NCBI GenBank assembly: GCA_044070495.1
Contig: JBIPSI010000005.1
Coordinates: 115,565 to 179,564, forward strand
Reading direction: 5' to 3'
Length of the DNA: 64,000 nt
Origin: Spirulina sp.
Lineage (GTDB): Bacteria; Cyanobacteriota; Cyanobacteriia; Phormidesmidales; Phormidesmidaceae
Below are positions 14,108 through 32,372 of this stretch, in pieces (within the stretch, counting starts at the first letter, position 1; the number at the start of each line of letters is the position of its first letter). Below the pieces are notes generated by a model. The model had not been told where the DNA came from. It made no database searches and saw nothing but the letters and a program-made list of their open reading frames with translations. The translations under genes were made by a program, and so were the position numbers.

Positions 14108-16072
14108 CTACTCCGCTGGGGGCAGCACAAAGGTGGGGAATAGCTCGGCGGTGCAGCTTGTATCGGGGGTGCGGTCGGGATCGTTCACAAAGGCGACCCC
14201 GATATCCTTGGCGCACTGGGAGGCCACGATGGCCCCGTGTCCGGTGCTGGAAAACTCCACAAAGGTACCGTTGCGTAGCCCCTCCATCACCCCGATGCCC
14301 ATTTCGGTGTTGGTTTGCACATCGTAGCGGCCTTGCAGCACCAGGGTGGGGATGGTGCTGTTGACCGGGGCGTGTTCGCGGGTGGGGGCGGGTTCAACGG
14401 GCCAGAAGGAGCAGAGGTCGTAGGCTTGCTGGGCGGCCACTATCCGCCCCAGGCCGAGCTGGGGCATCAGCATGGTCTCGTAGTTGATTTGGGTTTGGTC
14501 TGGATCACTAAAGGGCACCAGTTCGCGGCAGTCTAAACTACGAAACATGCCTGTGGTGATGTCATCAATGGGGGCAATGGAGTCGGTCAGGGCCGAGACC
14601 ACGTCGTAGACATGGCGCACCTCGATATCGGACATGGCGTTGACGGCCTCGGTCAGGGTGGCGGCGGTGTCGCCCTCAAATTCTTCCGCTACAAAGGCGA
14701 TCAGGGTCTCCCGGTTGCGAGGACTCTCGGTATAGCCCACCCCCAAGAGGTTGACCAACAGCAGCACCCCCTCCGATTCAGGCAGGGTGTCGGCAATGGC
14801 TTGGATCTGCTGTACCCAGCGGCTGGCAGGGCGGCTGGTTTCGGCGGCGGTGGCCCTAGCCCGTAGAATATCCTCCGCCTTGGCCTCAAAATCTCGCGCT
14901 TGCAGACGGTAGACCTCGGGCGAAGATTCAAAGGTCGGTGGGTTGGCTGCGGTGCTGAATAGTGACCCGCTGATCACCCCGGCAAAGGTGGTGGTGATGC
15001 CCTGCTCTAGCTCGTGGACAATCAGCGGCAGGTAGGGGGCAATCTGGCCGGGTTTGTGGTTCATCAGCTCGATCAGGGTGGCAAACTCGGCGGCGGTGAT
15101 GCGCTCCAGGGGGGTAGTCCGCTCTAGGGGGGTGACGGGTGCCGCTAGGGGAATGGGGGCTTCATCGAGCCGGTTGAGCAGGGCTTGGGTGCGCTCCACC
15201 AAGTTGGGATAGGCGGCACCGCAGGCGGTATCGGCTTCGCAATCTGCCACCAGGTTGAGGAAGCTGATCTCCAGGTCGCGGACGATGGCTTCATACTTGC
15301 TGGCCTGCATGGGCACAGTGGAGTCGAGCACTGCGCTGCGCACCCGGTCGGGGTGGTTGGCCATAATCCGCTGGGCCAGGTAGGTGCCGTAGGAAATGCC
15401 GTAGAGGTTGATCGGGCCGTAGCCCAGGGCGGCGGTCAGATTTACCACGTCCTGGGCACTGTTGGGGGTGTTGTAGTTGCTGAGGTCGTTGCCGTGGTTT
15501 TCTAGCACCCGCGCACAGAGGTCGAAGAAGGCATAGTTTTGCAGCGTGTCGTCATCGGTGTTGGGCAAGCGTGCGCGCAACCGATTGACGAGCGGATCCA
15601 GGGTGCCTGCGTAGGGGCTGCTGGGATCGAGCAACACACCCAAGGTCAGCAGCGCCACCGGGGCACAGCCCAGCCGATTAGAGAAGAGCGTTCCCCGCTG
15701 ATCCAACACAATAATGTCGCGGGTTTGGCGCAGGGGTTCGTAGATGTTCACCCGCGTTTCTAAGGCCCCTGATTCCAGGGTGCTGCCCCCTGGCCCGCCG
15801 CGCAAATCCATCACCGGATCTGGGGCGGGGGAAAGGCTGCGGCTGTGCAGCACGGCGTAGGTGAGTTCAATCTGGCGACCGTTGGGTTCAGCGTAGTTTT
15901 CCGGCACGGTGAACATGCCGCAGGTGATGGTTTCGCCTTCAATTTCGTTGGGCGGCAACACCGTGGGGCAGGGGATGACGGTAATCGAATGGCGGGGAGC
16001 CTGGGCCAGGGCGGGGATTTGGGCTGCGAGGGTAGCGGCGAAGGCGAGGAGGGGTAGGGGTAGGAGTTTCAT
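14108..16072 (-). CDS. Secreted alpha/beta hydrolase (TAP/tripeptidyl-peptidase-like) with a large helical insertion
   Basis: Signal peptide ending ALA-Q; GGPG, DQRG, YGISYGT nucleophile, GRYD, GHG. Confidence 0.88.
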   Translation of the reverse strand: MKLLPLPLLAFAATLAAQIPALAQAPRHSITVIPCPTVLPPNEIEGETITCGMFTVPENYAEPNGRQIELTYAVLHSRSLSPAPDPVMDLRGGPGGSTLESGALETRVNIYEPLRQTRDIIVLDQRGTLFSNRLGCAPVALLTLGVLLDPSSPYAGTLDPLVNRLRARLPNTDDDTLQNYAFFDLCARVLENHGNDLSNYNTPNSAQDVVNLTAALGYGPINLYGISYGTYLAQRIMANHPDRVRSAVLDSTVPMQASKYEAIVRDLEISFLNLVADCEADTACGAAYPNLVERTQALLNRLDEAPIPLAAPVTPLERTTPLERITAAEFATLIELMNHKPGQIAPYLPLIVHELEQGITTTFAGVISGSLFSTAANPPTFESSPEVYRLQARDFEAKAEDILRARATAAETSRPASRWVQQIQAIADTLPESEGVLLLVNLLGVGYTESPRNRETLIAFVAEEFEGDTAATLTEAVNAMSDIEVRHVYDVVSALTDSIAPIDDITTGMFRSLDCRELVPFSDPDQTQINYETMLMPQLGLGRIVAAQQAYDLCSFWPVEPAPTREHAPVNSTIPTLVLQGRYDVQTNTEMGIGVMEGLRNGTFVEFSSTGHGAIVASQCAKDIGVAFVNDPDRTPDTSCTAELFPTFVLPPAE

Positions 16073-16075
16073 GGT

Positions 16076-16131: not shown

Positions 16132-16160
16132 AGCTTTGAATTTTTGGAATTGGGGGAGGG

Positions 16161-17936
16161 TTATTGGGGGCTGGGTATGGCGTGGTGGAGGTTGGTGAAG
16201 GTGGCTAGGGTCTTGTCTAGATCGGGGGGCTGGCGGGCTTGGGTGGCTTGCTCGATGGCATAGCCCACCGCCAGCAGATCGGGTTCGCTGAGGGCTTTGC
16301 CGATCAGAAAAACGCCGAGGGGTTCGCCCGTCTCAGCAAAATCGATGGGCACGGTGAGGGCGGGGTATCCGGCGGCGGCGTAGGCTTGGGTACTGGCGAT
16401 CAGCACATCAATGTCCGCTTCAGCAAAGAGCTGGTCGAGGGCGGCGCGGGCGGTGGTTTGGTGGGTGTCGCGCAGGGTGGTGTAGGCGGAGGAGGGGCTG
16501 TCGCTGCGCTGGGCGGTGCTGAGGTGGTCTTGCCCGTAGGGAATACGGTTGGCGGGGTCGGCGTTGTTGAAGGAAATGACATCGATCAGGGCGGCGACGG
16601 GCGGGTTGGGTAGGGTGGGCAAAAAGGCGTTGAGGGAGGCTTTGAAGCCGGGGGGCAATGCGGCGTTGGCATCCGGGGCTGGGGGCACGGTGTTGCTATC
16701 CACCTCAACAACGGGGATGCCCTGCTGGGTGAGGGCTGAGATCGCCTTGTTGGCGATTTGATTGGCCCGTTGGTACCGGCTTACGAGGCTGGGTAAGAGC
16801 GCCACAATGTCCGCTGTCATCTCGGCGGGCGGATTGGCGATCGCCGCTTCTAACTGGTCGATGACGGCCTCTGAGGTCACGGCCACGCCGACCCGCTGCT
16901 GCCTGGCCCGATCCAGATCCAAAAACCGGGTAAAGTCGGCGCTTTGCAGCTCCGCCACGGCGGGGTCAGGGCTTTCCTCCGAGCCTTCATCGGTGTGGGT
17001 GAGGGCGCTGAGCAGGGTGGCCACATCGGTCACGGTGCGGCCCATTGGCCCCGGCACATCCATCCAGTCCACCAGGGGAATAACGTAGTCGCCGTTGACC
17101 AGGCCGTGGGTGGGTTTCAGCCCTACAATGCCGTTGGTGGCCGCTGGTTTGACGATGGAACCCTCGGTTTCGCTGCCCACGCTGACGGCGGTGAGGCTGA
17201 CCGCCACAGACACCGCTGAGCCAGAGCTAGAGCCGAGCGGGTCAAAGGGGCCGTAGGGATGGCGGGTTTGCCCGCCCAGGGCGCTAAAGCCGCTGGGCAT
17301 GGCAGGATCCACATAGTTCGCCCATTCCGATAGGTTGGCCTTGCCGAGAATCACGGCCCCTGAGTTCCGCAGGTTTTTGACCAGTTGGGCATCGCGATCA
17401 CCCCGCCAATCCTTCAGTGCTACAGCCCCGGCGGCGCTGTGCATTTGGTCGCCCGTGATGATGTTGTCTTTAATGAGTACCGGGATGCCGTGCATCGGCC
17501 CCCACAGGTTGCCCTCGGCCCGTTCGGCATCCAGGTTGCGGGCGATCTCCAGAGCATCGGGGTTTAGCTCCATCACCGAGTTGAGCTGGTTGACGTCGTA
17601 GCGCTGAATCCGATCCAGGTAGTAGATCACCAGTTCCTCGGCGGTGATCACCCCCCGCGCCATGTATTGCTGGAGTTCAGGCACCGTAGCCTCTGGCAAC
17701 CGCAGCCGATCATTCAGGTAGCGCCGCCGCCCTGAGGGCCATGCCGCTAGCGCCTCGGCAAAGGGGCCGAAGTCGCGCAGGCGCTTGCTGGTGTAGTCGG
17801 GTTCTGACACCGGGAACTCCGTCGGGTAGGCGCGAGGGGGGCCTTCGGGAGGTGGGGGAACGGCAGCGACGTGGGTAGCCAGGGTGAGGGCAATCGCGGC
17901 CAGGGCCAGCGGTAAAATGCGACGCAGGAGTTTCAT
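16161..17936 (-). CDS. Secreted amidase-signature family enzyme
   Basis: Signal peptide MKLLRRILPLALAAIA; IKDNI (Lys), GSSSGS and GSETEGSI catalytic triad motifs. Confidence 0.92.
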   Translation of the reverse strand: MKLLRRILPLALAAIALTLATHVAAVPPPPEGPPRAYPTEFPVSEPDYTSKRLRDFGPFAEALAAWPSGRRRYLNDRLRLPEATVPELQQYMARGVITAEELVIYYLDRIQRYDVNQLNSVMELNPDALEIARNLDAERAEGNLWGPMHGIPVLIKDNIITGDQMHSAAGAVALKDWRGDRDAQLVKNLRNSGAVILGKANLSEWANYVDPAMPSGFSALGGQTRHPYGPFDPLGSSSGSAVSVAVSLTAVSVGSETEGSIVKPAATNGIVGLKPTHGLVNGDYVIPLVDWMDVPGPMGRTVTDVATLLSALTHTDEGSEESPDPAVAELQSADFTRFLDLDRARQQRVGVAVTSEAVIDQLEAAIANPPAEMTADIVALLPSLVSRYQRANQIANKAISALTQQGIPVVEVDSNTVPPAPDANAALPPGFKASLNAFLPTLPNPPVAALIDVISFNNADPANRIPYGQDHLSTAQRSDSPSSAYTTLRDTHQTTARAALDQLFAEADIDVLIASTQAYAAAGYPALTVPIDFAETGEPLGVFLIGKALSEPDLLAVGYAIEQATQARQPPDLDKTLATFTNLHHAIPSPQ

Positions 17937-17973
17937 GGGGGCTGGATGAACGTAAAGGGGAAAGATGACTGGC

Positions 17974-19491
17974 CTACTCGTACTCAAACCTGGGTGTGAC
18001 TTCAGCCAGGCAGCTACTCTCCGGCGTTTGGGTGGGGTCGGCCAGGAAATCGAGGGCAATCGCCTCTACACAGGTCGCGGCTGGGGTGCCCGGTGGTGCC
18101 ACCATCGAGCCGTGACCCACACCGGGGAAGGTGTAGACATAGGCATTCTGAAAATTGCGGGCAACGGTCTCGCCGTAGAGTTGGGGCGTGACCGGGTCGT
18201 AGCCGCCATTGAGCACTAGGACGGGAATCTCGGTGTTGTCGTAGGCGAAGATTGGCTCTCGCTCAACCTGAAGCAGTTCGCAGAAGCTCTGATAGGAAGC
18301 ACTCTCACTCTCCCCGATCGCGATCAGCTGCTCGTAGGGGGCAGGAAACACGGTAGACGGATCTACTGCCACGGAATCGACCCGCGAACAGAGCACCGCG
18401 TGATACATGCCTGTGGCCTCAGTATCCTGGAGCTTCTCCGAGAGTGCGGTTACGGCCCAGCTAAAATCTCCCTCAGCCGCCTGGTAAATGTTCTGGGGCA
18501 GGGCTGAGGCATTCAGACTGCTGGCCATATGGGCTTCAAAAAACAGCAGAAATTCGTTTCGATCTAGCGTGGTTTCCAGGGGTTCCTTGGTGTCGGGGAT
18601 CGAGAGCGTCAGCGGAGCAGGGGTTTGCTCTAGACGATCCAGCACGCTCAGAAAGACGGTTTCCAGGTTGGGGTAGGTCTGATTACACTGGGCATCGGCG
18701 GCGCAGGCGGCAAACAGGTTGCGCAGCGCCCCGCTAAAGGTGTAGGTAGCGGCCAGGTTAAAGTCGATATTCGTCGTCACCACCCCGTCGAGGATCGCAC
18801 TGCGGAGCTGGGCGGTGTGTTCCTCCGCCTGCTCTAGCACGTATTGCCCCAGCAGCGTGCCGTAGGACACCCCGTAGTAATTAAACTCGTCGTAGCCCAG
18901 GGCTTCGGCCACCGCATAGATATCGGCGGCATTTTCGATGGTGTTGAAGGCGTTGGGGTTAATGCCTGCGGCAAGACTGCGATCGAGGCAGGCCTCCATC
19001 CACTGGGTATCGGTGGGGGCGATCTCGTCGCGAGCCACCGATATATTGTGATCGGTTCTCTCGGGGCAGTTAAAGAAGGGGCGTGAATGCCCAGTGCCCC
19101 GCTGATCGACAAACACGAGATCGCGCTCTTGCAGCAAGGCGGGTAACACCGGCCAGATGGTTAACACATCGACCGCAAAGGTTTTAATGGTCGTGCTGCC
19201 GGGGCCACCATTTTCCACAAACAAGGGGGATGGGGCAGGGTTCTCGCCAATGCTGCGGGTTCTGACTACTGCCACCTGAATGGTCGGCCCATCGGGTTGG
19301 CTGTGGCGCTCTGGCACGGTGACATAGCCGCAGTCAGACATGGCGCTTTGCAGCACGTTCAGACCAAAGGTGGAGCAGTCGGTGGATTCCCAAGCGGGGC
19401 TGGTAGGGGCACTGCCCATCGCTGGCGTGGCCGTGACGATGGTAATGCCCAGGGCAGCGAGTCCGATCAAGCGATTGAATGAGTGAGTCAT
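17974..19491 (-). CDS. Secreted alpha/beta hydrolase (TAP-like), paralogue of 14108-16072
   Basis: Signal peptide; CGYVTVPE, GGPG, DQRGTG, YGVSYGT, YDPVTP, GHG. Confidence 0.9.
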   Translation of the reverse strand: MTHSFNRLIGLAALGITIVTATPAMGSAPTSPAWESTDCSTFGLNVLQSAMSDCGYVTVPERHSQPDGPTIQVAVVRTRSIGENPAPSPLFVENGGPGSTTIKTFAVDVLTIWPVLPALLQERDLVFVDQRGTGHSRPFFNCPERTDHNISVARDEIAPTDTQWMEACLDRSLAAGINPNAFNTIENAADIYAVAEALGYDEFNYYGVSYGTLLGQYVLEQAEEHTAQLRSAILDGVVTTNIDFNLAATYTFSGALRNLFAACAADAQCNQTYPNLETVFLSVLDRLEQTPAPLTLSIPDTKEPLETTLDRNEFLLFFEAHMASSLNASALPQNIYQAAEGDFSWAVTALSEKLQDTEATGMYHAVLCSRVDSVAVDPSTVFPAPYEQLIAIGESESASYQSFCELLQVEREPIFAYDNTEIPVLVLNGGYDPVTPQLYGETVARNFQNAYVYTFPGVGHGSMVAPPGTPAATCVEAIALDFLADPTQTPESSCLAEVTPRFEYE

Positions 19492-19673
19492 GGTGGGGTT
19501 TCCTGGATGGCTAGAAAAAAACGAGTCAGACGAGCATTGGGAACATTTGGTCGAGATCCCAGGGTTCTTTAGCCTGTTAACCACGAGTGTTGGCTTACCC
19601 ACCAACAGAACTCTGGGATCTGGTCTTCGATAGAATAGGATCTACGGCCTTGCGTGAGCGGAGCACGGTACCC

Positions 19674-20255
19674 ATGAGCCAAGCCCTCCCGACGGAAAAC
19701 CAGCTTTTGACCTTTGAGGACTATCTGCGCCACGACGATGGCACCGATACCCGCTACGAACTGGTGAACGGAGTGCTGGTGGAAATGCCCCCAGAATCGG
19801 AAGAGAACAACGATATTGCTCGCAAGCTGTTGTTTGAGTTGGCAAAGCATCTGCCCATCTCCCTCTTGGCCTACAAAGACACCGAGATCGAAGTCACCGG
19901 GCGACGCGCCACCTGCCGAATTCCCGATCTGCTGGTGCATACCGAAGCCTCGAAGGCTGCTGTAGCTGGGACGACCCGCGCCACCATTACCCGCGATATG
20001 CCTCCCCCGGCCTTGGTGGTGGAGGTGGTCAGCCCTGGGCAGGCCAATCGCGAACGCGACTACCGCTACAAACACACCGAGTATGCGGGGCGGGGCATTA
20101 CAGAATATTGGATTGTCGATCCTGAAACCCGGCAGGTGACGCTGTGCCTGTGGGTGAACGGGCAGTATGAAGACCGGGTCTACAGCGGTGCAGAAACTTT
20201 GCAATCCACCGTAGTGCCGGGTTTTGGGCTGACGGTGGCGCAGATTTTCGGGTAG
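19674..20255 (+). CDS. Uma2 family (PD-(D/E)xK-like) putative endonuclease
   Basis: [32 protein letters not shown]. Confidence 0.92.
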
Positions 20256-20324: not shown

Positions 20325-22160
20325 CTAGGGATGGCCGTTGTTTCGGTCGTCTGGGCGCTGGGTGAGGGGCAACATAGGGTGGCTATCTAGCTTCATTGCC
20401 CCATCTAGGGAGTAGTACTGGGGGATGCCGATCTCGATGCCATTGGCTTCTAGGGCGCGTCGTACCCGTAGCCGAAACTCGCGCCCCACGGCCATGTGCT
20501 GCCCTGGTTCGGTCTGAATCCAGGTGGTGATGGTCAGGCCGCTGTGGGAGACGCTGTCAATCCCTAGAATTTTGGGGGCCGAGAGAATCTTGTCGTGCCA
20601 GAGGGGGTCGTCATAGAGGTCTTGGGCGACGGCCCGCATCACCGTTAGGGCGTGGTCGGGGTCGGTGTGGTAGGCCACATCAATGCTGAAATTCACCCGT
20701 GACCAACTGCGAGTCAGGTTTTTGACCTGGGTAATGCTGCTGTTGGGGATGGTGATCAGTTCGCCGTGGCTGCTACGAATTTGGGTAACGCGCATATTAA
20801 GGTTTTCGACTAGGCCCGTGGTCTGCGATCCCAGGTCAATGACATCGCCAATGGCGTACTGATCTTCGGCCAAAATTAGGAAGCCATTCACCAAATCTTT
20901 CACCAGGTTTTGGGAGCCAAAGGTAATGGCTAACCCCGCCAAACTGCCAATGGCAATCACCGAAGCCGTGGATAGCCCCAGCGTATTCAACCCCGACAAC
21001 ACCCCCGCCAGCAAAATCACCACGGTTGCCAGCCCTTTCATCGCCCCGGCAATGGTAGAGGTGCGCAGGTTAAGGCGTTGGCTATCACCGACCTCAATAA
21101 AATCGATCAAATCTAGGGGGTTCCAGCGGGTGATAAAGCGATCAATTAGCCTACGACTGATGCGGATTGCCAACCCCGTTACAAACCAAACCAACAGCAG
21201 AGACAGCAGCATATCTAGGATATGAAACTGGTTGCGGATGAGGTAGATGGAGACCTTGGCCAGCCAAAAGAAGCCTCCGTACAAAATCGCCATCAGTAGC
21301 CAAAACAGCAGCCATTGGAGAATTTCTAGGGCAGCCAGTTGGCGATCTAGGTTAAAGATTTGCGGTAGCCGCTGCAAAAAGTCCGTGCGCCGCAGAATGA
21401 GGGATTCCTCTACCGTTGTGCCCCCATCCCCTGGGGAAGATTCAGGGATCACCGCAAATTCAGGAATGGCAGCGTCAGGCAGCGGTGCAGACTGAAGGGC
21501 TTTTTTCTGTCGTCGCAGCCGACCTTGCGGTTTAGATAGGGCATACTTCAGAGCAATAATGCCAAAACTGCTCAGCAAAACCCCAGTCAAAATGTGATTG
21601 ATCCGACGACGGGCCGCAGGTAGTTGTTCTAGCCCACTGCGAAGTTCTGCTTCGAGGATGTCGCGCCATTCCTCCGCGAGGATATCAATGGGCTGACCAT
21701 TAAAATCGGCGTCAAATTCTGTTATCGAAAGTAAGACTAAGGGCCGAGGAAACTGATCATCTCGCACATCAATAATGGCTACATTATTGAGTTGTGACAC
21801 CTCAAACACTAGGGTTTCTGGATCCATAGGCCGCTGAAGTAAGAGCAGCAACTTGGCCTGAATTTCCTCTGCCCGTTGCTCCACGGTTTGGCGACCACTC
21901 AAACTATCCATCGAACGGTCATATACCGTGGGAGAGGCAATGGTAAAAAGATTATTTTCGCTGAGGGGAGATTGAACGGAGATCGCCTCCATGTTGCCGT
22001 AGCGCGTCACCTCTGGCGGTGGCCCGATCACCCCTTTTTGACCAAACCCCTCTGGAAAGGAGAACTGAGCCTGACTGGGCTGACCCAGGGCTAGGCTGAG
22101 AACCATCGCCAAAAGAAAGGTCAACGCTAGGGCAAAGAAACGCTTTAATGGGGTAGACAT
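20325..22160 (-). CDS. Mechanosensitive channel MscS family protein with large N-terminal extracytoplasmic domain
   Basis: GLAITFGSQNLVKDLVNGFLIL.EDQYAIGDVI, GLVENLNMRVTQIR, ITIPNS. Confidence 0.92.
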   Translation of the reverse strand: MSTPLKRFFALALTFLLAMVLSLALGQPSQAQFSFPEGFGQKGVIGPPPEVTRYGNMEAISVQSPLSENNLFTIASPTVYDRSMDSLSGRQTVEQRAEEIQAKLLLLLQRPMDPETLVFEVSQLNNVAIIDVRDDQFPRPLVLLSITEFDADFNGQPIDILAEEWRDILEAELRSGLEQLPAARRRINHILTGVLLSSFGIIALKYALSKPQGRLRRQKKALQSAPLPDAAIPEFAVIPESSPGDGGTTVEESLILRRTDFLQRLPQIFNLDRQLAALEILQWLLFWLLMAILYGGFFWLAKVSIYLIRNQFHILDMLLSLLLVWFVTGLAIRISRRLIDRFITRWNPLDLIDFIEVGDSQRLNLRTSTIAGAMKGLATVVILLAGVLSGLNTLGLSTASVIAIGSLAGLAITFGSQNLVKDLVNGFLILAEDQYAIGDVIDLGSQTTGLVENLNMRVTQIRSSHGELITIPNSSITQVKNLTRSWSRVNFSIDVAYHTDPDHALTVMRAVAQDLYDDPLWHDKILSAPKILGIDSVSHSGLTITTWIQTEPGQHMAVGREFRLRVRRALEANGIEIGIPQYYSLDGAMKLDSHPMLPLTQRPDDRNNGHP

Positions 22161-22201
22161 AGGATGAGCGGTGTATGGCAGGTTATCCCTAGAAAACACA
22201 T

Positions 22202-22837: not shown

Positions 22838-22884
22838 GGTTATTCCGGCAGGGTTATTCCTAAAATCTGGGAACCGTTTATGAG

Positions 22885-23091: not shown

Positions 23092-23101
23092 ACGTCACCT
23101 A

Positions 23102-23743: not shown

Positions 23744-23849
23744 GGTCAATCTCACAAAGGAATGAATGTTGAAATAGGCAGTAAGGGGTGGCAGGCCTAT
23801 GCATTAAAGGTGGGCAGTGCCCTACGGATAGTTGAGGCGGCTCGGTCAC

Positions 23850-24485
23850 CTACTCCCCATCGCTGGGGAAGATGATGAAGTCGCTGCGGATCCAGCCAAT
23901 CGCCCCAGAGACTAAAAACTGCACCCGGCACCAGTTCAAGTCGCTGCCAGCGGTATCGCGGTCTGGCACACATTCCAAAATGTTGACCCGGTCACCTGCT
24001 AAGCCATAACCCACAGCACGGGAACGAGCGGACGCCTGACTGCGTAAATTGATTTGAGAGCCGCGATCATGGGCAACCAGGGTAGCCACGCGAGTACCGC
24101 TTATGCCCTGAGTAATGGGGCCAGTACCGAAAGAGGTACTTTCGTCCCAATAGACCCAGAGGTGGGAGCCATCGACAAACTCAAAAATGGTTCCCGCATT
24201 GCCTAGACCACTCTGGCGGTAGACGGCCTGACCATGCTGGTCGCGGAAATTCCCTGGCTGATTGCCGACAGGGTCAAAATCGTAACGAGCGCCATTGCTT
24301 TGCAGTTGAATGCCAATGTGCCCCTGTCGCTGGGAAAAGGTGCAGTTGCTCGATAAATAGGCGTAGTCTTCGCCGGGGGCGTATAGGTCGCAGTGGGCGG
24401 GGGTGGTATCGGCTTTGGCCGAGAGTCCCAGGCTCAAGGCCGAAAAGGTAGTCACAGCCGACAACAAAACGGTTTGAACTTTCAT
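23850..24485 (-). CDS. Secreted protein: CTFSQRQG domain plus C-terminal bacterial SH3-like domain
   Basis: Signal peptide ending AKA-D; INLRSQ...VGYGLAGDRV.IL...WCRVQF..SGAIGWIRSDFI is SH3b-like. Confidence 0.82.
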   Translation of the reverse strand: MKVQTVLLSAVTTFSALSLGLSAKADTTPAHCDLYAPGEDYAYLSSNCTFSQRQGHIGIQLQSNGARYDFDPVGNQPGNFRDQHGQAVYRQSGLGNAGTIFEFVDGSHLWVYWDESTSFGTGPITQGISGTRVATLVAHDRGSQINLRSQASARSRAVGYGLAGDRVNILECVPDRDTAGSDLNWCRVQFLVSGAIGWIRSDFIIFPSDGE

Positions 24486-24740
24486 ACTTCAACGAAACCT
24501 TTAAAACAAGTCAAGGCCAAAGCTATTGCCGAGAAAATAGGCTAGAAAACTAGATCAACTAGACAGATTCCATGCGAACCAATGTATTTCAATCGCAAAT
24601 CTGGCGTGGAGTATATCAGCCCATTCAATCGCTATACAACATATCTTAAGACCTGCTTAACAAGCCGATTCCCCCTAAGCTATTCGCGCTAATGGGTAAA
24701 TACATGAAGGGTTGATTATTTGGATGCCAATCCTTTATCT

Positions 24741-24884
24741 CAGTCAGTTAAGGCTTTTTAGGAGAATCTTCCGAGGCTAATCTTGGTTGTTTCATTTCAA
24801 GATCAAACCCAATGCTAATTTCCTTTAACTATTAACTGACTGCATCGATTAAGTCGGTCATTTAAGCACTATTTCAGTCAGTTA
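24741..24884. promoter_or_regulatory. Repeated CAGTCAGTTA motif, candidate operator in the divergent promoter
   Basis: Exact copies at 24741-24750 (+), 24833-24842 (-) and 24875-24884 (+); degenerate AAGTCGGTCA at 24851. Confidence 0.55.
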
Positions 24885-24950
24885 GTCCTTGAATGGGAGC
24901 AACTATCTTTTTCCTCGGTAAAGCTTCCTGGGCGATGTAAAGTACACACT

Positions 24951-26303
24951 ATGAACTCCGACGAACGGCAAGTGGCAAAGCGTAGGCGAGGGGTGGTACT
25001 AACCTCCCTTGGGTTAGCGCGTTTGCAAGGGGCCATTGCCCAGCTTGCCGACCAGCAAAACCAAGGTGTGCCCTACAATGCCGAAGCCTTGAGCCACCTG
25101 ACGGGAGTGTCCCCCTCCACCATTCGGCGGCTGCGGGCGGCCAAGGCGGGGATTGATCAACGCAGTTTGCAGCAAGTCTTTACAGCCCTTGCCCTAGACC
25201 TGACCAAGAGCGATTTTCGATGGATAGATCGCTCCGATGCCGAGCTAGCCGCCGAGGAGTTGGCTCAGTCCCCCTCATCCGCTGCGGCCTACCGATACCC
25301 CAGCGGCCCGATTCCCCTGGCTTCGCCGCTATACATCCTACGAGCGCCCATCGAGCAACGGGCCTTTCAAGAAATCACCCAACCGGGCTGCGTGGTGCGC
25401 ATCAAAGCGCCGCCTCAGTTTGGCAAAAGCTCACTACTGCTGCGGATTGTCCACCAAGCCCAGCAGTTAGACTACGCCACAGCCCTGATTGATTTTCAAC
25501 AGTTGGATGCCGCCATCCTCAGCGATGGGGATCGGCTGTTGCAATGGTTTAGCGCCACCCTGGCCCTCAAGCTCGGTGTGGAGGCCGACCCCGCCACCGC
25601 CTGGAACGCCATCGTCGGCAGTCAGCTCAGCGCCACCCTGTTTGTGCGGGAGCAGGTTCTCCGCACCGTGAACCGTCCCGTTTTGCTGGCGATCAACGAC
25701 CTAAGCCGCCTGTTCGAGTACCCCGCCACCGCCCAAGGATTTTTGCCGCTGCTGCGTTCGTGGTACGAAGAAGCCAGCCACGACGATCTCTGGCAACACC
25801 TGCGCCTGGTGGTCACCTATTCCACCGATAGCTACCTGCCGCTGGATATCAACTATTCCCCCTTCAACATTGGCCTGCCCCTGGCGCTGCCAGAGTTTAC
25901 GGCGGCCCAAATACTGGAATTAGCAGGACTGTATGGGCTGAACTGGGCCGATCACGAAGCCCATCAACTCATGGCTCTAGTCGGCGGGCATCCCTCCCTG
26001 GTACATGGATCCATCTACCACCTCAGCCAGGATTTGATGAGCCTGGAAGTACTCTTACAAACCGCCTGTACCCCCCAAGGCATCTACCAAGGCCACCTGC
26101 AAAAGCTACTAGCAGAGGTCAACTCACCCCAATGGGCCGAACCCCTACGGGCCTTAGTCATGGGTGAGGAGGCCATTCCCCTAGATCCCCTGCTGGCCTA
26201 CCAACTCGAAGGCATCGGCCTGATCAAAGGTTCTGCCGAGGGCTGGCAGATCAGCCGCGACCTCTACCGTCAATCCCTGCGGCAAAGGCTGGCGGTTGAT
26301 TAG
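24951..26303 (+). CDS. N-terminal HTH plus AAA_35 (STAND-like) domain protein, probable transcriptional regulator
   Basis: RRRGVVLT..G..RL and LSHLTGVSPSTIRRL (XRE-like HTH); YILRAPIE, KAPPQFGKSS, SPFNIG, GGHPSL. Confidence 0.85.
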   Translation: MNSDERQVAKRRRGVVLTSLGLARLQGAIAQLADQQNQGVPYNAEALSHLTGVSPSTIRRLRAAKAGIDQRSLQQVFTALALDLTKSDFRWIDRSDAELAAEELAQSPSSAAAYRYPSGPIPLASPLYILRAPIEQRAFQEITQPGCVVRIKAPPQFGKSSLLLRIVHQAQQLDYATALIDFQQLDAAILSDGDRLLQWFSATLALKLGVEADPATAWNAIVGSQLSATLFVREQVLRTVNRPVLLAINDLSRLFEYPATAQGFLPLLRSWYEEASHDDLWQHLRLVVTYSTDSYLPLDINYSPFNIGLPLALPEFTAAQILELAGLYGLNWADHEAHQLMALVGGHPSLVHGSIYHLSQDLMSLEVLLQTACTPQGIYQGHLQKLLAEVNSPQWAEPLRALVMGEEAIPLDPLLAYQLEGIGLIKGSAEGWQISRDLYRQSLRQRLAVD

Positions 26304-26434: not shown

Positions 26435-26986
26435 ATGCGATCCCCCACAACCCTCACCCCGCTAGAGGCGTTTCTGCGCCAACCCAACATCGAAGGTTCC
26501 CCTGCCTGGGAGTTTGTCAACGGGCGCGCCCAACAGAAACCCATGCCCACCCTGTTTCACTCTCGCCTTCAGCGCAATTTGGTGAATGCCATCAACAGCC
26601 AAACCACCGAGTATGAGGCCATCCAAGAGCTGCGTTGCATAGTGCCGCCCTTCTCGCCAGTGCCAGATATTGTGGTGGTGCCCAGCAACCGCCTGCCCGA
26701 AGACGATGGGCCATTACCCGGTGCCCCAGACTGGCTAATCGAAATTCGCTCCACCGATCCAAGTACGTTCGATCCAAGTACGTTGGATTTGCAAAACAAG
26801 ATTCTGCACTGCTTGAGCAATGGCACTCAACTGGCCTGGTTAATTGACCTCCAACGCCAGCAAGTTTGGGTATGGCAAGGGCAAGACCTACCAATGATTT
26901 ACGCTGGCTCAGAACTGTTGCCTGCCATTGGGGCCATTCCTAGCTTTGCGGTAGAAACAGTTATGGCCATGGCCCGACAGCGATAG
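26435..26986 (+). CDS. Uma2 family putative endonuclease
   Basis: WEFVNG...KPMP, VPDI, PDWLIEIRS, KILHCL..G.QLAWLID. Confidence 0.88.
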   Translation: MRSPTTLTPLEAFLRQPNIEGSPAWEFVNGRAQQKPMPTLFHSRLQRNLVNAINSQTTEYEAIQELRCIVPPFSPVPDIVVVPSNRLPEDDGPLPGAPDWLIEIRSTDPSTFDPSTLDLQNKILHCLSNGTQLAWLIDLQRQQVWVWQGQDLPMIYAGSELLPAIGAIPSFAVETVMAMARQR

Positions 26987-27066: not shown

Positions 27067-28080
27067 TCAAACGAATGAGACTACAGACTTGCAACAAGGA
27101 CAAACACATTCTCCTTGCAGATAAAGACGATCAAGATCAGATCGCAAAATATTGATTCTAGAATTGCAAAGCTTGCACGGCAAATCGTATTCTTTCAAAA
27201 AAAGAATTATAGGCATAGGAATTTCATCGGCTTCAAATTCCCAAAAACCCTCGATTAACCACTTTATCAAACCGATATGAGTCTTTACTTCTACAAAATC
27301 ATGGCCGTCTACAGCTCTTCTTGCCATTCTTCTCAGCAACGATTCGATCACTTGAACCGAGTGAAACAAAATAAATGGAAGAATTGCATACAGGCCTTCC
27401 CACTGTGATAATTTATTGCTTAATCCCGAGAAAATAAAGTTAAAATTTTCTGGCTCAGTTTCCAGAAACCTAAAAGTAGTAATTAAATGATTGGCTTTCT
27501 GGAAATAGTTTTCAAACGACAATTCTGAGCTTTTGCTGTATCTTATGTCATGAATGAAAGATGGCTCTATCCAGACACCCAGTGAAGTTTTTTCTAGTGC
27601 AGTCTTTATTGTTTCAATTCTATCTTTTTCGGAAATTCTGGAAATGGACAGCTGTTTTGGATCTCTAGACTCATACTTGTCGAAGAAGTCTCTTGGGTTG
27701 GCAAGTAGCCATTCGAGATAGAATAAGTTCTCCTTCATAGGCTTTCGAAGCAATGCATACGTTATCGTAAGCTTTCCTTTCCTTGAACATTCTAGAGCTT
27801 CATGTATGAAATGAAGATAGTCAGAAAGTAACGCACGAAAAATCTCTTTGTAAAAAATAATTCTTACGTCTCTTTCGTAGCCTTTGGCCCGAAACCAATC
27901 AATCAAATCTTCGCCAGATTTTCCTTCGATTTCTTGTGAGTGATTAGATTCCTTGAATCTAACTTTCGTCTCAAAAATATTTGCTTCTTCTCCCGAGCGT
28001 AGTGTTTCCACAAGTTGATCGTGAAGGAAAAAGCAATATTCATGAATTTCTTGGAACTTTTCAGGTAGAAAATTATCCAT
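27067..28080 (-). CDS. AT-rich hypothetical protein with C-terminal CxxC...CxCC zinc-ribbon-like motif
   Basis: 337-aa ORF; visibly AT-rich relative to its flanks. Confidence 0.7.
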   Translation of the reverse strand: MDNFLPEKFQEIHEYCFFLHDQLVETLRSGEEANIFETKVRFKESNHSQEIEGKSGEDLIDWFRAKGYERDVRIIFYKEIFRALLSDYLHFIHEALECSRKGKLTITYALLRKPMKENLFYLEWLLANPRDFFDKYESRDPKQLSISRISEKDRIETIKTALEKTSLGVWIEPSFIHDIRYSKSSELSFENYFQKANHLITTFRFLETEPENFNFIFSGLSNKLSQWEGLYAILPFILFHSVQVIESLLRRMARRAVDGHDFVEVKTHIGLIKWLIEGFWEFEADEIPMPIILFLKEYDLPCKLCNSRINILRSDLDRLYLQGECVCPCCKSVVSFV

Positions 28081-28406
28081 TTTCTATATTTGTTGGAAAG
28101 CGAGAACGATTTTTTCGGCAAACCATTCTTGATGGTACATGGGTAGCAATTGTCAGTTTGTGGGATGTGTTATCAGTCATCAACACCTTGCTGATTAAAA
28201 TATAGTCTTTACCCTATTTGCAACATGACGCTCACATTGATCGAGCACCCTGTTAGTATAGTAAGTAGTACATTTAGGGTGGTAGAAGCGAGATAATAGT
28301 TGCTGCCTTTTGCCAGTCAGCTTAGCGTAAGCGGCAAGCCAACAAGCCGACTAAATGACTTAACTTATTGCATAATAGAGCGATTCGCCCTGGGGATGCC
28401 CCGCCT

Positions 28407-31400
28407 GTGCTCACCCCCTCCATTTATAAAGTTGGCGGTTGCCTCCAGGCCGAGGCCAGTACCTATGTGGTGCGCCAGGCCGATGAGGATCTGCTGGCGG
28501 CGTTGGCTGCCAGGGAATTTTGCTATGTGTTTAGCGCTCGGCAGATGGGCAAATCTTCCCTGCTGGTGCGGATTAAGGATCAGATTCAGCGGGATGGGGG
28601 CCGCTGTGCCTACCTGGATATGACCCGCCTGGGCAGCAACGGCCTCACCCAGGCCCAGTGGTATACCGGGGTGGGGGTGAGCCTGTTGCAAAGCCTGAAC
28701 GTGCTGGGGCAGGTAGATTTTTTGGCCTGGTGGCAGGCGCGGGAGAGCCTGCCCTTGGTGCAGCGCCTCAATCAGTTAATGGATGAGGTGGTGCTGCCCG
28801 CTACGGCGGATGATCCGGTCTATATCTTTATCGACGAAATCGATGGGCTGCTGAGCCTCGACTTTTCCACCGACGACTTCTTTGCCTGGATGCGGTCGTG
28901 CTACAACCTACGCGCCCACGACCCGCGCTACCGTCGCCTCACCTTTGCCCTATTTGGCGTGGCCACCCCCGCCGACCTCATCGCCGACAAGCAGCGCACC
29001 CCCTTCAACATTGGCCAAGCGATTTCCCTGGAGGGCTTTACCCTGGCCGAAAGTGCGCCCCTGCAACAGGGGCTAGAGGGGCTGGTGGATTGCCCCCAGG
29101 CGGTGCTGAAGGCCATTTTGGATTGGACGGGGGGACAGCCCTTTTTAACCCAAAAGCTGTGCCAGATTGCGGCGAAAAATGCCCAGCTATCGGAGACGGT
29201 GCCCCTGGCGCTCTCCCCCGGCATGGCTGATTTTTGGGTGGAGGGGTTGGTGAAAACGGCGCTGCTAGATCATTGGGAAGCCCAGGATGAGCCGATTCAC
29301 CTGCGCACCATCCGCGACCATTTGTTTTGGCACCAAACCCGCACCGCCCGAATTTTGGGCCTGTATCAACAACTGCTGGAAGGGGAAACGGTGCCCTCCG
29401 ACGATAGCCGCGAACAGAGCGATCTGCTGTTGTCGGGGCTGGTGGTGCGGCGGGGTAACCATCTGGCGATTAAAAACCGCATCTACCGAGAGGTTTTCAC
29501 CCTCGACTGGGTGAGCCGCCAACTGCATCGGCTGCGCCCCTACGCCAGCGCCCTAGAAGGGTGGGTGGCCTCGAATCGCCAGGATTCCACCTACCTGCTC
29601 CAGGGCCAAATCCTGCTGGAGGCCGAAGCCTGGGCGCGGGACAAAAGCCTCAGCGATATCGATTACCAGTTCCTCGCCGCCAGCCAGGATGCCGAACGCC
29701 AGCGCATTCAGCAGCAACTCAACGCCAAGGCCGAGAGTGAGCGGTTTTTTCGGCAACTGGCGGAAGCGGTGCCGCAGATGGTGTGGATTGTGGAACCGGA
29801 CGGCAGCCTGTCCTACACCAACCGCCAGGGGAGCGACTTTTCGGGGATTTCCCAGGACGGATTGCAGGAAATTCAGCGCCTAGAGGTGATTCACCCAGAG
29901 GATCGGCAAACCAGTCTAACGGCTTGGGAGCAGGCCTTTGCCACGGGCAACCCCTACGAAGTGGAGCTGCGCCTGCAAGATGCCAACGGCCAGTACCGCT
30001 GGTTTTTGAACCGGGCTGTGCCCATTCGCGATGGGGCGGGGCAGGTGGTGAAGTGGTTTGGCACCAGTACCGATCTGGATGAGGTCAAACGCAGCGAAGC
30101 GGCCAAGCGCCTGAAGGAACGGTTTCGGCTTCAGCGGTGGCTGCTGGGGGCGGTGAGTGCGGGGTTGGCCATCGCCACGGGCCTGGGTCTCTATGCCTTT
30201 GCCCAGCGCCACCAGGCCACCCTGAGGGAAATTGAGGCCATTGCTAGCCTCTCCGAAGCCCAGTTTGCCTCTGGCAACCGCCTAGATGCCCTGGTGACGG
30301 CACTCCAGGCCCAAACCCGGCTCGATAAACTGCGGCGGGTACCCGATGAACTGGCGGCCTTGACTGATCGCGAACTGCGCCGCGCCACCTTTCAAGCGTT
30401 GGAATGGAACCGCTTTGATGGCCACCTGGGCCGCGTGCGTGGCCTAGCGGTCAGCCCCAGCGGCGACCGGATCGCTGCCACCTACCAAAAAGAGGCCACC
30501 CTACTCTGGGGCATGGATGGCACCCTGATCGCCCGTCTTCCCGGTGCCGCCCGCGATGCCGCCTTTAGCCCCGTTCGCGGAGCGTCTCCAGAGGAGAACG
30601 GCCACACCCTGGCCACCGCTGGCGATGACGGCACCGTCTATCTCTGGGATCGAGAGGGCCAGCCCGTGGCCGCTCTGAAGGGCCACCAAAAAGCCGTCAA
30701 GGCCGTTGTCTTTAGCCCCGACGGGCAGCAGATTGCCTCCGCTGGTAGCGATAACCTGATCAAACTCTGGAGCCGGGAGGGCCAGATCATCCGCACCCTG
30801 TCTGGCCATCGCGGCACTATTTGGGACTTAGACTTCAGTCCAGATGGGCAGCAACTCGCCTCCGCCAGCGACGACAACACCGTTAGGGTGTGGAATCTTG
30901 ATGGCACTCTGATTCGCAGATTGCAGAACCCCGTCCCTTCCACCGAAGGCGAAAACCGACTGCAAAGCGTGGCCTTTAGCCCAGACGGGCAAACCCTGGT
31001 GGCGGGAGACTCCTACGGCAATATCCTCTGGTGGAACGCCGACGGTACGCTGCAAGCCGTGACCTCCGAGCATCGCAAGATGGTCGGTCGCCTCGTCTTC
31101 AGCCCCGACGGACAAACCCTGGCCTCCGGCAGTTGGGATAACACTATTAAACTCTGGAACCGCGATGGCACCGTCCTCCGCACCATGACGGCCCACCCCA
31201 GCGGCACCCTGGCCCTAGCCTTTAGCCCCAACGGTCAACGGCTCATTTCCGGCGGCGAAGACGATCTGGTGCGAATCTGGCAGCTTGATTCCCTGATGCT
31301 CACCATCCTGCGGGGCCATCGCGCCTCGGTATGGGATGTGGGGATTGCCCCAGACGGCGACTCCATCGTGTCCTCCAGTTCCGACGGCACCGTCAAACTC

Positions 31401-32372
31401 TGGAACCGGGAGGGCCAACTTCAGCGCACCATCCCCCTCGACCAAGGGGAAATTTGGGCGGTGGAGATCAGCCCCGATCAGCAAACCCTAGCCGCCGTCA
31501 GCAACGCGGGCATCCTCACCCTCTGGGCCATGGATGGTAAGCCCTTGCGCTCGATCAACGCCCACGACGATACCGCCTTTGATGTCGCCTTTAGCCCCGA
31601 CAATCGCGCCATCGCCACCGTCGGCTGGGACGGACAGATCAAGCTCTGGCGACCCGATGGCACCTTGATACAGTCGTTGCAAAGACGCCCAGAGGCCGAC
31701 AGATTGCAAGGTGCCAACTCATCAGCGGCCAATTCACCCCAGGACTCCCTAAAAAACCGCCTAAATGCCGTTACCTTTAGCCCAGACGGCCAGTGGCTAG
31801 CGGTGGCGGGCCTAGACGAAGTGATTCACCTCTGGCGGCGCAATGAAACCGGAACCTTTACCCCGCACTCCCATCCGGTGATCTCTGGACACAGCGATAC
31901 CATTTGGGACGTGGCCTTTAGCCCCGACAGCACCCTCATCGCCAGCGCCAGCGAAGACATGACGATCAAACTCTGGTCGCTGGAGGGCACCCTAATTCGC
32001 ACCTTTGAAGGACATACCGACCGCGTCAACGCCGTCACCTTCATCCCTCTCAACTCCGGCCTGCCCGCCGACTGGGGCACCGTCATTGCCTCCGCCAGTT
32101 GGGATAAATCCCTCAAACTCTGGTCGCTAGACGGCCCCCTGCGCCTCACCCTCGAAGGCCACGAAGAACGCGCCCTAGACGTGAATTTCCACCCTGACAC
32201 CAGCACCCACGGCCCCCTACTCGCCTCGGCTGGGCTGGATAATATGGTTATTCTCTGGCCCCTGGATCGCGTGGTAGAACAACCGCAAATCCTCAGCTAC
32301 GGCTGCCAATGGGTGCGCGAGCACTTGCAAAACACCCCCCAAAATGACGCTCAGGCGCTGTGCAAAGACTAA
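28407..32372 (+). CDS. AAA_35 NTPase - PAS - transmembrane helix - WD40 repeat protein (start uncertain; ORF open from 28368)
   Basis: YVVRQAD, SARQMGKSS, IFIDEID, TPFNIG, WTGGQPFLTQK; PAS/PAC IHPED...YRWFL.RAVP.RD..G.VVKWFGT.TD; TM WLLGAVSAGLAIATGLGLYAF; roughly 13-14 GH...FSPDG...W repeats. Confidence 0.9.
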   Translation: MLTPSIYKVGGCLQAEASTYVVRQADEDLLAALAAREFCYVFSARQMGKSSLLVRIKDQIQRDGGRCAYLDMTRLGSNGLTQAQWYTGVGVSLLQSLNVLGQVDFLAWWQARESLPLVQRLNQLMDEVVLPATADDPVYIFIDEIDGLLSLDFSTDDFFAWMRSCYNLRAHDPRYRRLTFALFGVATPADLIADKQRTPFNIGQAISLEGFTLAESAPLQQGLEGLVDCPQAVLKAILDWTGGQPFLTQKLCQIAAKNAQLSETVPLALSPGMADFWVEGLVKTALLDHWEAQDEPIHLRTIRDHLFWHQTRTARILGLYQQLLEGETVPSDDSREQSDLLLSGLVVRRGNHLAIKNRIYREVFTLDWVSRQLHRLRPYASALEGWVASNRQDSTYLLQGQILLEAEAWARDKSLSDIDYQFLAASQDAERQRIQQQLNAKAESERFFRQLAEAVPQMVWIVEPDGSLSYTNRQGSDFSGISQDGLQEIQRLEVIHPEDRQTSLTAWEQAFATGNPYEVELRLQDANGQYRWFLNRAVPIRDGAGQVVKWFGTSTDLDEVKRSEAAKRLKERFRLQRWLLGAVSAGLAIATGLGLYAFAQRHQATLREIEAIASLSEAQFASGNRLDALVTALQAQTRLDKLRRVPDELAALTDRELRRATFQALEWNRFDGHLGRVRGLAVSPSGDRIAATYQKEATLLWGMDGTLIARLPGAARDAAFSPVRGASPEENGHTLATAGDDGTVYLWDREGQPVAALKGHQKAVKAVVFSPDGQQIASAGSDNLIKLWSREGQIIRTLSGHRGTIWDLDFSPDGQQLASASDDNTVRVWNLDGTLIRRLQNPVPSTEGENRLQSVAFSPDGQTLVAGDSYGNILWWNADGTLQAVTSEHRKMVGRLVFSPDGQTLASGSWDNTIKLWNRDGTVLRTMTAHPSGTLALAFSPNGQRLISGGEDDLVRIWQLDSLMLTILRGHRASVWDVGIAPDGDSIVSSSSDGTVKLWNREGQLQRTIPLDQGEIWAVEISPDQQTLAAVSNAGILTLWAMDGKPLRSINAHDDTAFDVAFSPDNRAIATVGWDGQIKLWRPDGTLIQSLQRRPEADRLQGANSSAANSPQDSLKNRLNAVTFSPDGQWLAVAGLDEVIHLWRRNETGTFTPHSHPVISGHSDTIWDVAFSPDSTLIASASEDMTIKLWSLEGTLIRTFEGHTDRVNAVTFIPLNSGLPADWGTVIASASWDKSLKLWSLDGPLRLTLEGHEERALDVNFHPDTSTHGPLLASAGLDNMVILWPLDRVVEQPQILSYGCQWVREHLQNTPQNDAQALCKD
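30573..30596 (+). repeat. 24-nt in-frame small dispersed repeat-like insertion inside a WD40 repeat
   Basis: gttcgcggagcgtctccagaggag interrupts the FSP-NG motif; contains a TCTCC/GGAGA hairpin. Confidence 0.6.

Follow-up and report, generated by a model that had tools for sequence, protein, structure and literature searches.

This analysis concerns a 64,000-nucleotide stretch of DNA (the window) on contig C5 of a 5.3-Mb, ~60% GC cyanobacterial genome whose nearest public relatives are labelled Phormidium sp. FACHB-1136, Nodosilinea and Leptolyngbya. The window carries two plus-strand genes for proteins with the AAA_35 nucleotide-binding module, one small and one large, and a divergent set of minus-strand genes for proteins predicted to be secreted, three of them built from small domains here called X, Y and Z. 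The locus is read as a split, membrane-spanning transcription switch of the STAND/NOD type (signal transduction ATPases with numerous domains; nucleotide oligomerisation domain) with a cis-linked envelope regulon, and as one member of a conserved cyanobacterial module; this reading is put at a little better than even, roughly 0.55. The gene content given in a first-pass annotation, two AAA_35 genes on the plus strand with secreted genes divergent from them, was confirmed by Pfam matches and a check of open reading frames (ORFs). The core features are:

24951..26303, plus strand: small partner, predicted XRE/Cro-type helix-turn-helix (HTH) plus AAA_35 NOD (Pfam AAA_35, AlphaFold2 model, homologues)
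28368..32372, plus strand: large partner, AAA_35 NOD, PAS, predicted transmembrane helix and WD40 (Pfam, hydropathy; alternative start GTG 28407)
24486..24950, no strand: putative divergent promoter region, 41% GC (conserved blocks, four copies of the CAGTCAGTTAAG box)
23850..24485, minus strand: predicted secreted protein with signal peptide, domain X and SH3_3 (hydropathy, profiles, Pfam SH3_3)
23102..23755, minus strand: predicted secreted protein with signal peptide and two copies of domain Y (hydropathy, profiles)
22202..22915, minus strand: predicted secreted protein with signal peptide, domain X and an unclassified C-terminal domain Z; probable start Met27
20325..22199, minus strand: MscS-family channel with signal-like N-terminus and large predicted extracytoplasmic domain (Pfam, hydropathy), a recurrent accessory of the module

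The two NOD proteins

The small protein matches AAA_35 (PF14516) along almost the whole profile (367.6 bits, profile positions 1-329 of 331; cut-off 27). About 110 residues precede this module: an HTH at about residues 15-91, then a disordered linker. The NOD motifs are a Walker A GKS, a Walker B LLAIND and GGHP; across 19 aligned sequences the Walker A residues (G158, K159, S161) and the Walker B pattern hhhh[ND][DE] are invariant, and GGHP is conserved. Judged by its homologues, the N-terminal domain is an XRE/Cro-type HTH: 12 of the 19 aligned proteins match HTH_3 and 6 match HTH_26 (E<=0.01; best 1.1e-5), several carry a precomputed PF01381 or PF13443, and many are named by JGI as 'transcriptional regulator with XRE-family HTH domain'. 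The AlphaFold2 model (pLDDT 85.7) has a confident helical domain at residues 15-91. The N-terminal HTH proposed in the first-pass annotation is backed by the homologues rather than by the window protein's own match, which is weighed below.

The defining order of domains in STAND proteins is a P-loop domain, a helical domain bearing a GxP motif, and a winged helix. The closest folds to the NOD of the small protein are PABY2304 (2qen; Z 20.6, rmsd 4.3, 309 residues aligned) and SSO1545 (2fna; Z 20.4), followed by plant nucleotide-binding leucine-rich repeat receptors (NLRs; Z 17.6), MalT (Z 16.3), CED-4 (Z 16.0) and ORC/Cdc6 (15-16); Foldseek adds Apaf-1 (E 2.9e-8) and Avs3 (E 2.4e-7), and the Pfam family ATPase_2 is weakly matched by 2 of the 19 homologues. 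The small protein is accordingly modelled as a NOD-type switch, and its placement inside the STAND clade is kept tentative because the archaeal ATPases 2qen and 2fna (Z ~20.5) score above NLRs, MalT and CED-4 (Z 16-17.6). These two best structural matches (303-309 residues aligned) differ in being single-module proteins of unknown role, 12-16% identical, without an HTH, a partner gene, or a membrane or repeat part. A sequence search of the PDB with the small protein gave nothing meaningful (best RecA, E 0.016), and no NCBIfam model matches it.

The large protein has a diverged AAA_35 module (91.5-94.6 bits at residues 26-278, profile positions 6-254; cut-off 27), a PAS domain at about 456-580 (PAS_3 59.3 bits against a cut-off of 25.6 at 483-566; TIGR00229 61.8 against 22.9), one hydrophobic helix at residues 592-610, then a linker and ~14 WD40 repeats (365.5 bits in 11 stretches). 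The Walker A GKSS and Walker B IFIDEID are invariant in 18 aligned orthologues, all of which have the PAS domain, and GGQP is conserved. The small and large NOD modules are 31% identical across 210 residues (E 4e-12), and their motifs follow in the same order: they are paralogous and, with their motifs kept, both look functional. No histidine kinase, receiver, sigma or anti-sigma Pfam family was matched in either protein of the pair (24951-26303, 28368-32372).

A single hydrophobic helix lies between the NOD module and the WD40 repeats in all four large partners of the host genome. Lysine and arginine are counted more often before this helix than after it in 35 of 35 large partners (187 against 72 in total, over 15 residues on each side). 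This fits the positive-inside rule and predicts an N-in/C-out topology with NOD and PAS in the cytoplasm and WD40 outside it, in agreement with the placement proposed in the first-pass annotation.

Between the window protein and its Nostocales counterparts, identity in the large partner is 53-60% for WD40, 53-63% for NOD and 61-67% for PAS; the small protein diverges faster (HTH 34-38%, NOD 45-47%). The WD40 part of the presumed receptor is about as conserved as its NOD, conserved rather than diversifying, and this argues for a conserved cue and not an arms race.

Pairing of the genes and the DNA between them

The 10 AAA_35 matches in the host genome include four adjacent same-strand small/large pairs (on C21, C8, C4 and, in the window, C5), each with a strong match in the small partner followed by a weak match in the large one. 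The outputs carried by the other small partners vary:

C21:64057-69454: paralogous AAA_35 pair; small-partner output a C-terminal GGDEF
C8:74354-82765: paralogous AAA_35 pair; unclassified N-domain output; extra 1157-aa ORF after the pair
C4:156873-162658: paralogous AAA_35 pair; small-partner output sigma70_r4_2
C45:30479-31870: fifth small AAA_35 gene, at a contig end

The GGDEF pair on C21 follows the same two-gene plan as the window pair, which differs by its XRE HTH output and conserved PAS. The neighbourhoods of these three pairs and of the fifth small gene are mutually unrelated and contain neither X/Y genes nor the box described below, of which no TCAGTTAA copy was found beside the paralogous pairs. 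HEPN/NTase and PIN genes are among the neighbours of such pairs.

All 11 places fetched from nine related genomes have the large gene after the small one on the same strand, seven times directly and four times with unrelated inserts between the partners. A species scan with one genome per species gave 601 pattern matches, 583 of them confirmed relatives, and the best 80 loci of the 583 were analysed. A partner with the large-type module (LN-type) lies inside the fetched flanks at 46 of these 80; some of the 46 partners are upstream or divergent, or carry the module at the C-terminus of a ~1,930-residue protein. Linkage of the AAA_35 pair is clearly conserved in this survey, the opposite of the outcome that would have refuted the first-pass reading. 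In several Nostocales the order and architecture are reversed against the usual ones: a long protein with the large-type module at its C-terminal end is encoded ahead of the small gene (L080, L088-L090, L096 and L099, ~1,930 aa; L086 and L093, 665 aa).

In the window itself the partners are separated by two genes outside the system:

26435..26986, plus strand: inserted Uma2 gene between the partners (E 8.6e-24)
27067..28080, minus strand: inserted 37%-GC gene of an uncharacterised family

The impression of the first-pass annotation that these genes look inserted is borne out. Two close relatives (L023 and L025) lack the stretch 26275-28297 between their partner genes, its Uma2 portion recurs only in L022 and L024, and the remaining relatives hold different cargo there. 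Because the stretch is missing in two close relatives and the cargo varies, the partners are taken to have been originally adjacent and the gap to be an insertion hotspot. The same position is occupied in L009, L010, L011 and L015; the cargo is SelO, a FemAB-like gene, a pterin-binding gene and one more ORF in G005, Uma2 and two ORFs in G019, and several short unclassified ORFs in G010. The partners are adjacent without an insert in G012, G039 and Leptolyngbya CCNP1308.

The gene at 27067-28080 (37% GC against ~60% around it) was called an orphan, which it is not: 140 of 1166 candidates are homologous to it at E<=0.001, with 47-50% identity for the best, and the named ones come from outside the cyanobacteria (Methylotenera, Rheinheimera, Stenotrophomonas, Massilia, Saccharimonadales). 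Its 337-aa product has a Cys-rich C-terminus and matches nothing in Pfam, NCBIfam, PADLOC or PHROGs. The gene appears to be a promiscuous, horizontally mobile member of a scattered and uncharacterised family. The window has a second Uma2 gene less than 7 kb away (19587-20255), and each of the two breaks a conserved gene order: that at 26435-26986 splits the AAA_35 pair, and that at 19587-20255 splits the MscS gene from the hydrolases described below. NCBIfam has no model matching the Uma2 proteins of the window.

Mobile cargo of this kind bears on a different reading of the pair, as an NLR-like conflict system (antiviral or abortive infection) in a defence island, with the HTH as effector or control element and the cassette linked only incidentally. 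The NOD fold is common to Avs and NLR proteins, the intra-pair gap gathers mobile cargo (Uma2, the AT-rich foreign gene, the short ORFs in G010), and the HEPN/NTase and PIN genes near the paralogous pairs would suit such a role. PMC7159879, in its available part, discusses STAND-WD40 proteins from multicellular bacteria under the heading of conflict systems; the EACC1/caspase two-gene system in that part of the paper is unrelated to the AAA_35 pair. Against this, PADLOC-DB 2.0 matches no family for the small protein or the X/Y proteins and mad8 alone (E 0.0084) for the large one, the WD40 part is predicted extracytoplasmic and is conserved about like NOD across orders, no enzymatic death effector is present, and a conserved single-copy neighbourhood with a conserved operator is atypical of defence islands. 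A conflict role is considered improbable, the least probable of the readings discussed here.

The secreted cassette and the candidate operator

The modules of the X/Y cassette are X (85 residues, two Cys), Y (60 residues), SH3_3 (37.3 bits in 23850-24485) and the further domain Z. X, Y and SH3 are shuffled: the window has X-SH3, Y-Y and X-Z, and relatives have X-Y fusions or separate genes. Profiles were built for X and Y and run on every six-frame ORF. In the host genome the X profile matches 2 ORFs and the Y profile 1, all within the cassette.

For the survey, the 80 loci were sorted without reference to the cassette into G1 (23 loci with an XRE N-terminus and a downstream partner of at least 1290 aa), G2 (20 other XRE loci) and G3 (37 without an XRE N-terminus). 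L026, in G1, was set aside, having just 777 bp upstream. X and/or Y ORFs lie upstream on the opposite strand in all 22 assessable G1 loci, against 3 of 18 in G2 and 1 of 36 in G3 (4 of 54 together); the four exceptions (L029, L033, L041, L035) are contig-cut or broken members of the same clade. By record labels this clade spans seven families: Nodosilineaceae, Leptolyngbyaceae, Oscillatoriaceae, Aerosakkonemataceae, Calotrichaceae, Nostocaceae and Scytonemataceae. G039, from another family, likewise has an X-Y gene divergent from its AAA_35 pair. The divergent small secreted genes pointed out beside the pair are thereby shown to be a constant feature of the orthologous clade.

A model of an X-Y fusion has two small all-beta domains, with X 8-stranded. 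No Pfam family or NCBIfam model is matched by X or Y, and PHROGs gave nothing for them. The Pfam families MliC, PliC and PliI are matched by 0 of 24 X/Y members at E<=1; structural neighbours in the Atlas include clusters with 59% PliI and 85% MliC members, all below the bar and leads only. A profile search of the PDB with the X/Y alignment returned designed 'Cake' proteins only (E 0.0049), Foldseek of the X-Y model against the PDB returned nothing at E<=0.001, and the Atlas feature search linked the Y-Y protein to no named family and yielded nothing usable for the X part.

The divergent intergenic region, aligned with six close relatives, contains conserved blocks, among them GTGGAGTATATCAG at about 24607-24620, and a repeated 12-mer box, CAGTCAGTTAAG. 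The copies in this region and the box-like sequences before the large gene are:

24741..24752, plus strand: box 1, CAGTCAGTTAAG, exact
24831..24842, minus strand: box 2, inverted, 1 mismatch
24855..24866, plus strand: box 3, 2 mismatches, 20 bp before box 4
24875..24886, plus strand: box 4, 2 mismatches
28314-28325 (plus strand) and 28359-28370 (minus strand): two box-like sequences with 2 mismatches each, upstream of the large gene

With up to 2 mismatches the 12-mer occurs 9 times in the window against 2.81 expected, a count reached by 0 of 100 shuffles; four of the nine belong to the divergent promoter, and another two stand shortly before the large gene, in a stretch (28314..28370) that is conserved throughout the Nodosilinea group. 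The 5.3-Mb genome has 16 exact GTCAGTTAA sites, and the sole two less than 200 bp apart are at this locus. Across relatives, 22 of 23 G1 loci, among them those of Nostoc and Calothrix, have exact TCAGTTAA between -600 and +150 relative to the start of the small ORF, and 18 have at least 2 copies; for the same interval the counts are 2 of 20 loci in G2 and 1 of 37 in G3. The density of TCAGTTAA there in G1 is 2.61 per kb against 0.055 per kb elsewhere in those loci (~47-fold). Scans of the window with consensus promoter and terminator patterns were uninformative (10 promoter-like sites against 6.9 expected). A cognate operator would be expected to follow its HTH subfamily from order to order, as this box does, and CAGTCAGTTAAG is proposed as the candidate operator.

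The positions of the boxes also allow a narrower scheme, in which the XRE-NOD protein controls just its own pair and the secreted genes are neighbours that share a function or habitat under control of their own. XRE regulators commonly autoregulate, all but one of the four boxes are less than 120 bp from the start of the small gene, and box-like copies precede the large gene. Such a scheme accounts less well for the exact box at 24741-24752, which is mid-region, and for the second box in Nostoc and Calothrix, 220-245 bp further upstream toward the divergent gene; moreover, the strict co-occurrence of X/Y across seven families, together with their absence elsewhere in the genome, is hard to explain without functional coupling. 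Autoregulation alone is held to be rather unlikely.

Beyond the X/Y/SH3 core, the cassette has accessories of differing constancy. The MscS gene (MS_channel_2nd, 70.7 bits) encodes a signal-like N-terminus, ~160 residues and then five membrane helices, and an orthologue at least 35% identical is found in 9 of 23 G1 loci and in L041. A PrsW-family membrane protease is present in 16 distinct loci (L025:5665-6900, L028:8163-9434 and 14 more) and has no homologue in the host genome; in Phormidium R1S1 and Floridaenema this intramembrane metalloprotease is the first divergent gene. Its presence in the cassettes of relatives raises the idea that the receptor may be processed proteolytically in some lineages. 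A third family of small secreted proteins also recurs there. A peptidoglycan-binding SH3, small putative periplasmic barrels, a turgor-relief channel and, in relatives, a PrsW-type protease together make up a content that points to the envelope.

The remaining minus-strand genes, and the insert that sets them apart, are:

19587..20255, plus strand: inserted Uma2 gene, outside the system, splitting the cassette (E 4.1e-33)
17974..19605, minus strand: predicted secreted TAP-like alpha/beta hydrolase, probable start Met38, loosely linked accessory
16161..18059, minus strand: predicted secreted amidase-signature enzyme, probable start Met42, loosely linked accessory
14108..16072, minus strand: predicted secreted TAP-like alpha/beta hydrolase, loosely linked accessory

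Both hydrolases (14108-16072 and 17974-19605) match Abhydrolase_1 and TAP-like, with Abhydrolase_4 at 51.5 and 36.2 bits, respectively; the amidase scores 218.4 bits. All seven minus-strand genes begin with an N-terminal hydrophobic signal-like segment, in some from an internal Met (hydropathy scan and inspection by eye, no trained predictor). The first-pass picture of one minus-strand run of secreted products holds for this character of the genes and fails for continuity, because the real gene at 19569-20270 is the plus-strand Uma2 gene 19587-20255, whose product is 85% identical in amino acids to that in L014. The minus-strand ORF 19569-20270 was rejected as a gene, being the shadow of this Uma2 gene.

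The trio of two hydrolases and an amidase was likewise rejected as part of the module core: it is cut off by Uma2 in the window and belongs to the accessories because it recurs near only some loci of the clade. The secreted cassette of the first-pass annotation is retained for its linked X/Y/SH3 core and recurrent MscS gene, with the trio an accessory at best. Its three genes (14108-19605) are 83-86% identical to those of G039 (L013/L014), a genome of another family, whereas the adjacent AAA_35 pair is just 53-64% identical between the two genomes; this suggests a recent transfer of the hydrolase genes or very unequal rates.

MscS genes are met at other AAA_35 genes as well. Two more lie directly 3' of the large gene (window 32495-34904), and homologues of these, 51% identical, stand directly upstream of an XRE-AAA_35 gene in Iningainema (L039:7551-9871). 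In a non-XRE subfamily of small AAA_35 genes in the Nostoc group (L045, L052, L057-L059, L066, L073, L075), two MscS-like genes of about 540 and 551 aa are always divergent upstream. MscS channels thus recur near AAA_35 regulators.

The proposed switch and its rivals

In the proposed mechanism, the large protein would sit in the cytoplasmic membrane with NOD and PAS inside and a double WD40 propeller in the periplasm, where it would detect an envelope-derived cue. The signal would alter the nucleotide or oligomeric state of its NOD module, which would then co-assemble with the paralogous NOD of the soluble XRE-HTH protein or, alternatively, release that protein from the membrane. The resulting array of HTH domains would bind the CAGTCAGTTAAG boxes between the pair and the divergent genes, and also the box-like copies before the large gene. 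Binding would set how the genes for the X/Y/SH3 periplasmic proteins and the co-oriented MscS channel, and probably those of the pair, are transcribed; the sign of this regulation and the nature of the cue are inferred here.

Contact between the two NOD modules was approached by complex prediction from large-protein residues 14-455 and small-protein residues 100-450, each supplied as a self-made alignment. The outcome was 'weak support': a median score of 0.56 against 0.00 for the best of 3 controls, with at least 81% of contacts agreeing between runs and partner pLDDT of at least 81. Of 157 solved complexes 116 attain the mark used, as do 2 of 215 mismatched pairs; only 18 of the 157 attain it with a score of 0.60 or less, and so do both of the mismatched pairs that pass. 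These figures are approximate here as the alignments were self-made. The prediction modestly raises a prior that is already fairly high from the conserved pairing. Compared with the first-pass interpretation, pair linkage, divergent secreted genes and topology are upheld, the hydrolases and amidase lose their core role, and AAA-AAA hetero-oligomerisation is more weakly backed than was stated.

Several observations weigh against the proposed switch. A contact score of 0.56 is in a range more often wrong than right unless contact is likely beforehand, and likeness may explain it because NOD-NOD contacts exist in solved STAND oligomers. The window protein's own HTH_3 match (E 0.0086, 16.5 bits) is under the Pfam cut-off of 23, and the topology of the large partner is read from hydropathy and charge bias only. 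The 22 of 22 loci with X/Y are not 22 independent events because the loci are related; a tree from a quick search, with small ORFs below 400 aa left out, needs just 3-4 changes of the cassette label. A 13-row XRE subclade (Rivularia, Calothrix and others) has no cassette and mostly no partner, and exact TCAGTTAA is missing from the vicinity of the small gene in G039. Only 7 of 23 G1 loci, together with L035 and G039, have a TAP-like hydrolase or an amidase gene nearby. X and Y have no informative solved match (best: lipocalin for X, Z 7.4; Brucella PhiA for Y, Z 6.2, 67 aligned), scores in a range rated as common. A search of sequencing runs with window 22200-30200 gave no RNA run; 20 DNA metagenomes matched in part, each with less than half of the sampled words.

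The subclade mostly without an adjacent large partner also suggests that the small protein can work alone, and this favours a reversed logic: the large membrane protein would be an anti-activator that holds the XRE-NOD protein inactive at the membrane, and the latter would sense a cytoplasmic ligand or be freed by a WD40/PAS trigger. MalK keeps the STAND activator MalT inactive at the membrane, and the fold matches include 8bob, 'negative regulation of the maltose system'. The NOD module of the small protein is complete and its motifs are intact, and the linkage evidence applies equally to either direction. The invariant Walker A/B motifs and the higher conservation of the large partner, however, exceed what a passive anchor needs. 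The reversed logic is judged unlikely, although it ranks above autoregulation alone.

The split switch can be set against known systems. STAND/NOD ATPases are known as cytosolic single-chain switches (MalT, Apaf-1, NLRs, Avs). MalT-type activators (E. coli MalT, 8bob) come closest in plan, coupling a NOD ATPase to a DNA-binding HTH, and MalT matches the fold of the small protein (Z 16.3, rmsd 3.8, 227 residues aligned). In MalT, nucleotide-dependent oligomerisation places several HTH domains on repeated boxes, and the same is expected of the present module. MalT/LuxR-type proteins, however, are single cytoplasmic chains of NOD, sensor and C-terminal LuxR-type HTH, whereas here two polypeptides each carry a paralogous NOD, the sensor is predicted to cross the membrane with WD40 outside, the HTH is N-terminal and XRE-type, and the NOD is Pfam AAA_35. 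The module would work like MalT-type activators, yet it is not a member of that family.

Apaf-1, CED-4, plant NLRs and Avs proteins share the order of a NOD followed by a repeat sensor (WD40 also in Apaf-1), with fold matches of Z 14-17.6. They differ in being cytosolic single chains with protease, nuclease or pore effectors; the present sensor is predicted to lie beyond the membrane, a second, putatively DNA-binding paralogue serves as output, and WD40 is conserved, not diversifying. In layout the locus resembles cpxP beside cpxRA, where an operon for sensor and regulator is divergent from the gene of a small periplasmic protein that is its strongest target and feeds back on the sensor. The likeness is one of layout only: no histidine kinase or response regulator is present here, X and Y are unrelated to CpxP, and feedback is hypothetical.

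No description of this module was found in the literature covered, a search outside which lie the supplementary tables of STAND surveys, where such clades are possibly listed; the name AAA_35 does not occur in the available main text of PMC13581612 and PMC7159879. The analysis adds the XRE/PAS orthologous clade, the conserved box and, in strict linkage with the clade, the cassette with two secreted domains not described before.

A wider proposal, clearly less probable than the split switch and offered tentatively, is that cyanobacteria possess a class of outside-in NOD receptors: NLR-like transmembrane proteins with a periplasmic WD40 sensor and a NOD-NOD relay that uses neither phosphorylation nor proteolysis. 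If this is true, the X/Y/SH3 proteins would be periplasmic partners of the propeller, either ligand-presenting factors or CpxP-like feedback modulators. Together with the MscS channel, and with the PrsW-type protease in many relatives, they would form a self-contained surveillance loop for cell wall or turgor. The swappable outputs (HTH, sigma-like, GGDEF) would then make a general modular signalling scheme alongside two-component systems.

For the split switch itself, a NOD ATPase divided over two paralogous proteins, one of them membrane-spanning with its sensor outside, would be a distinct kinase-free route from envelope to transcription. The locus makes the idea directly testable: it offers a defined, predicted DNA-binding protein, a candidate operator, CAGTCAGTTAAG, and a small, specific candidate regulon, and orthologues exist in culturable strains of Nostoc, Calothrix and Leptolyngbya. 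It would give a first functional handle on the very large, uncharacterised AAA_35-WD40 families of filamentous cyanobacteria.

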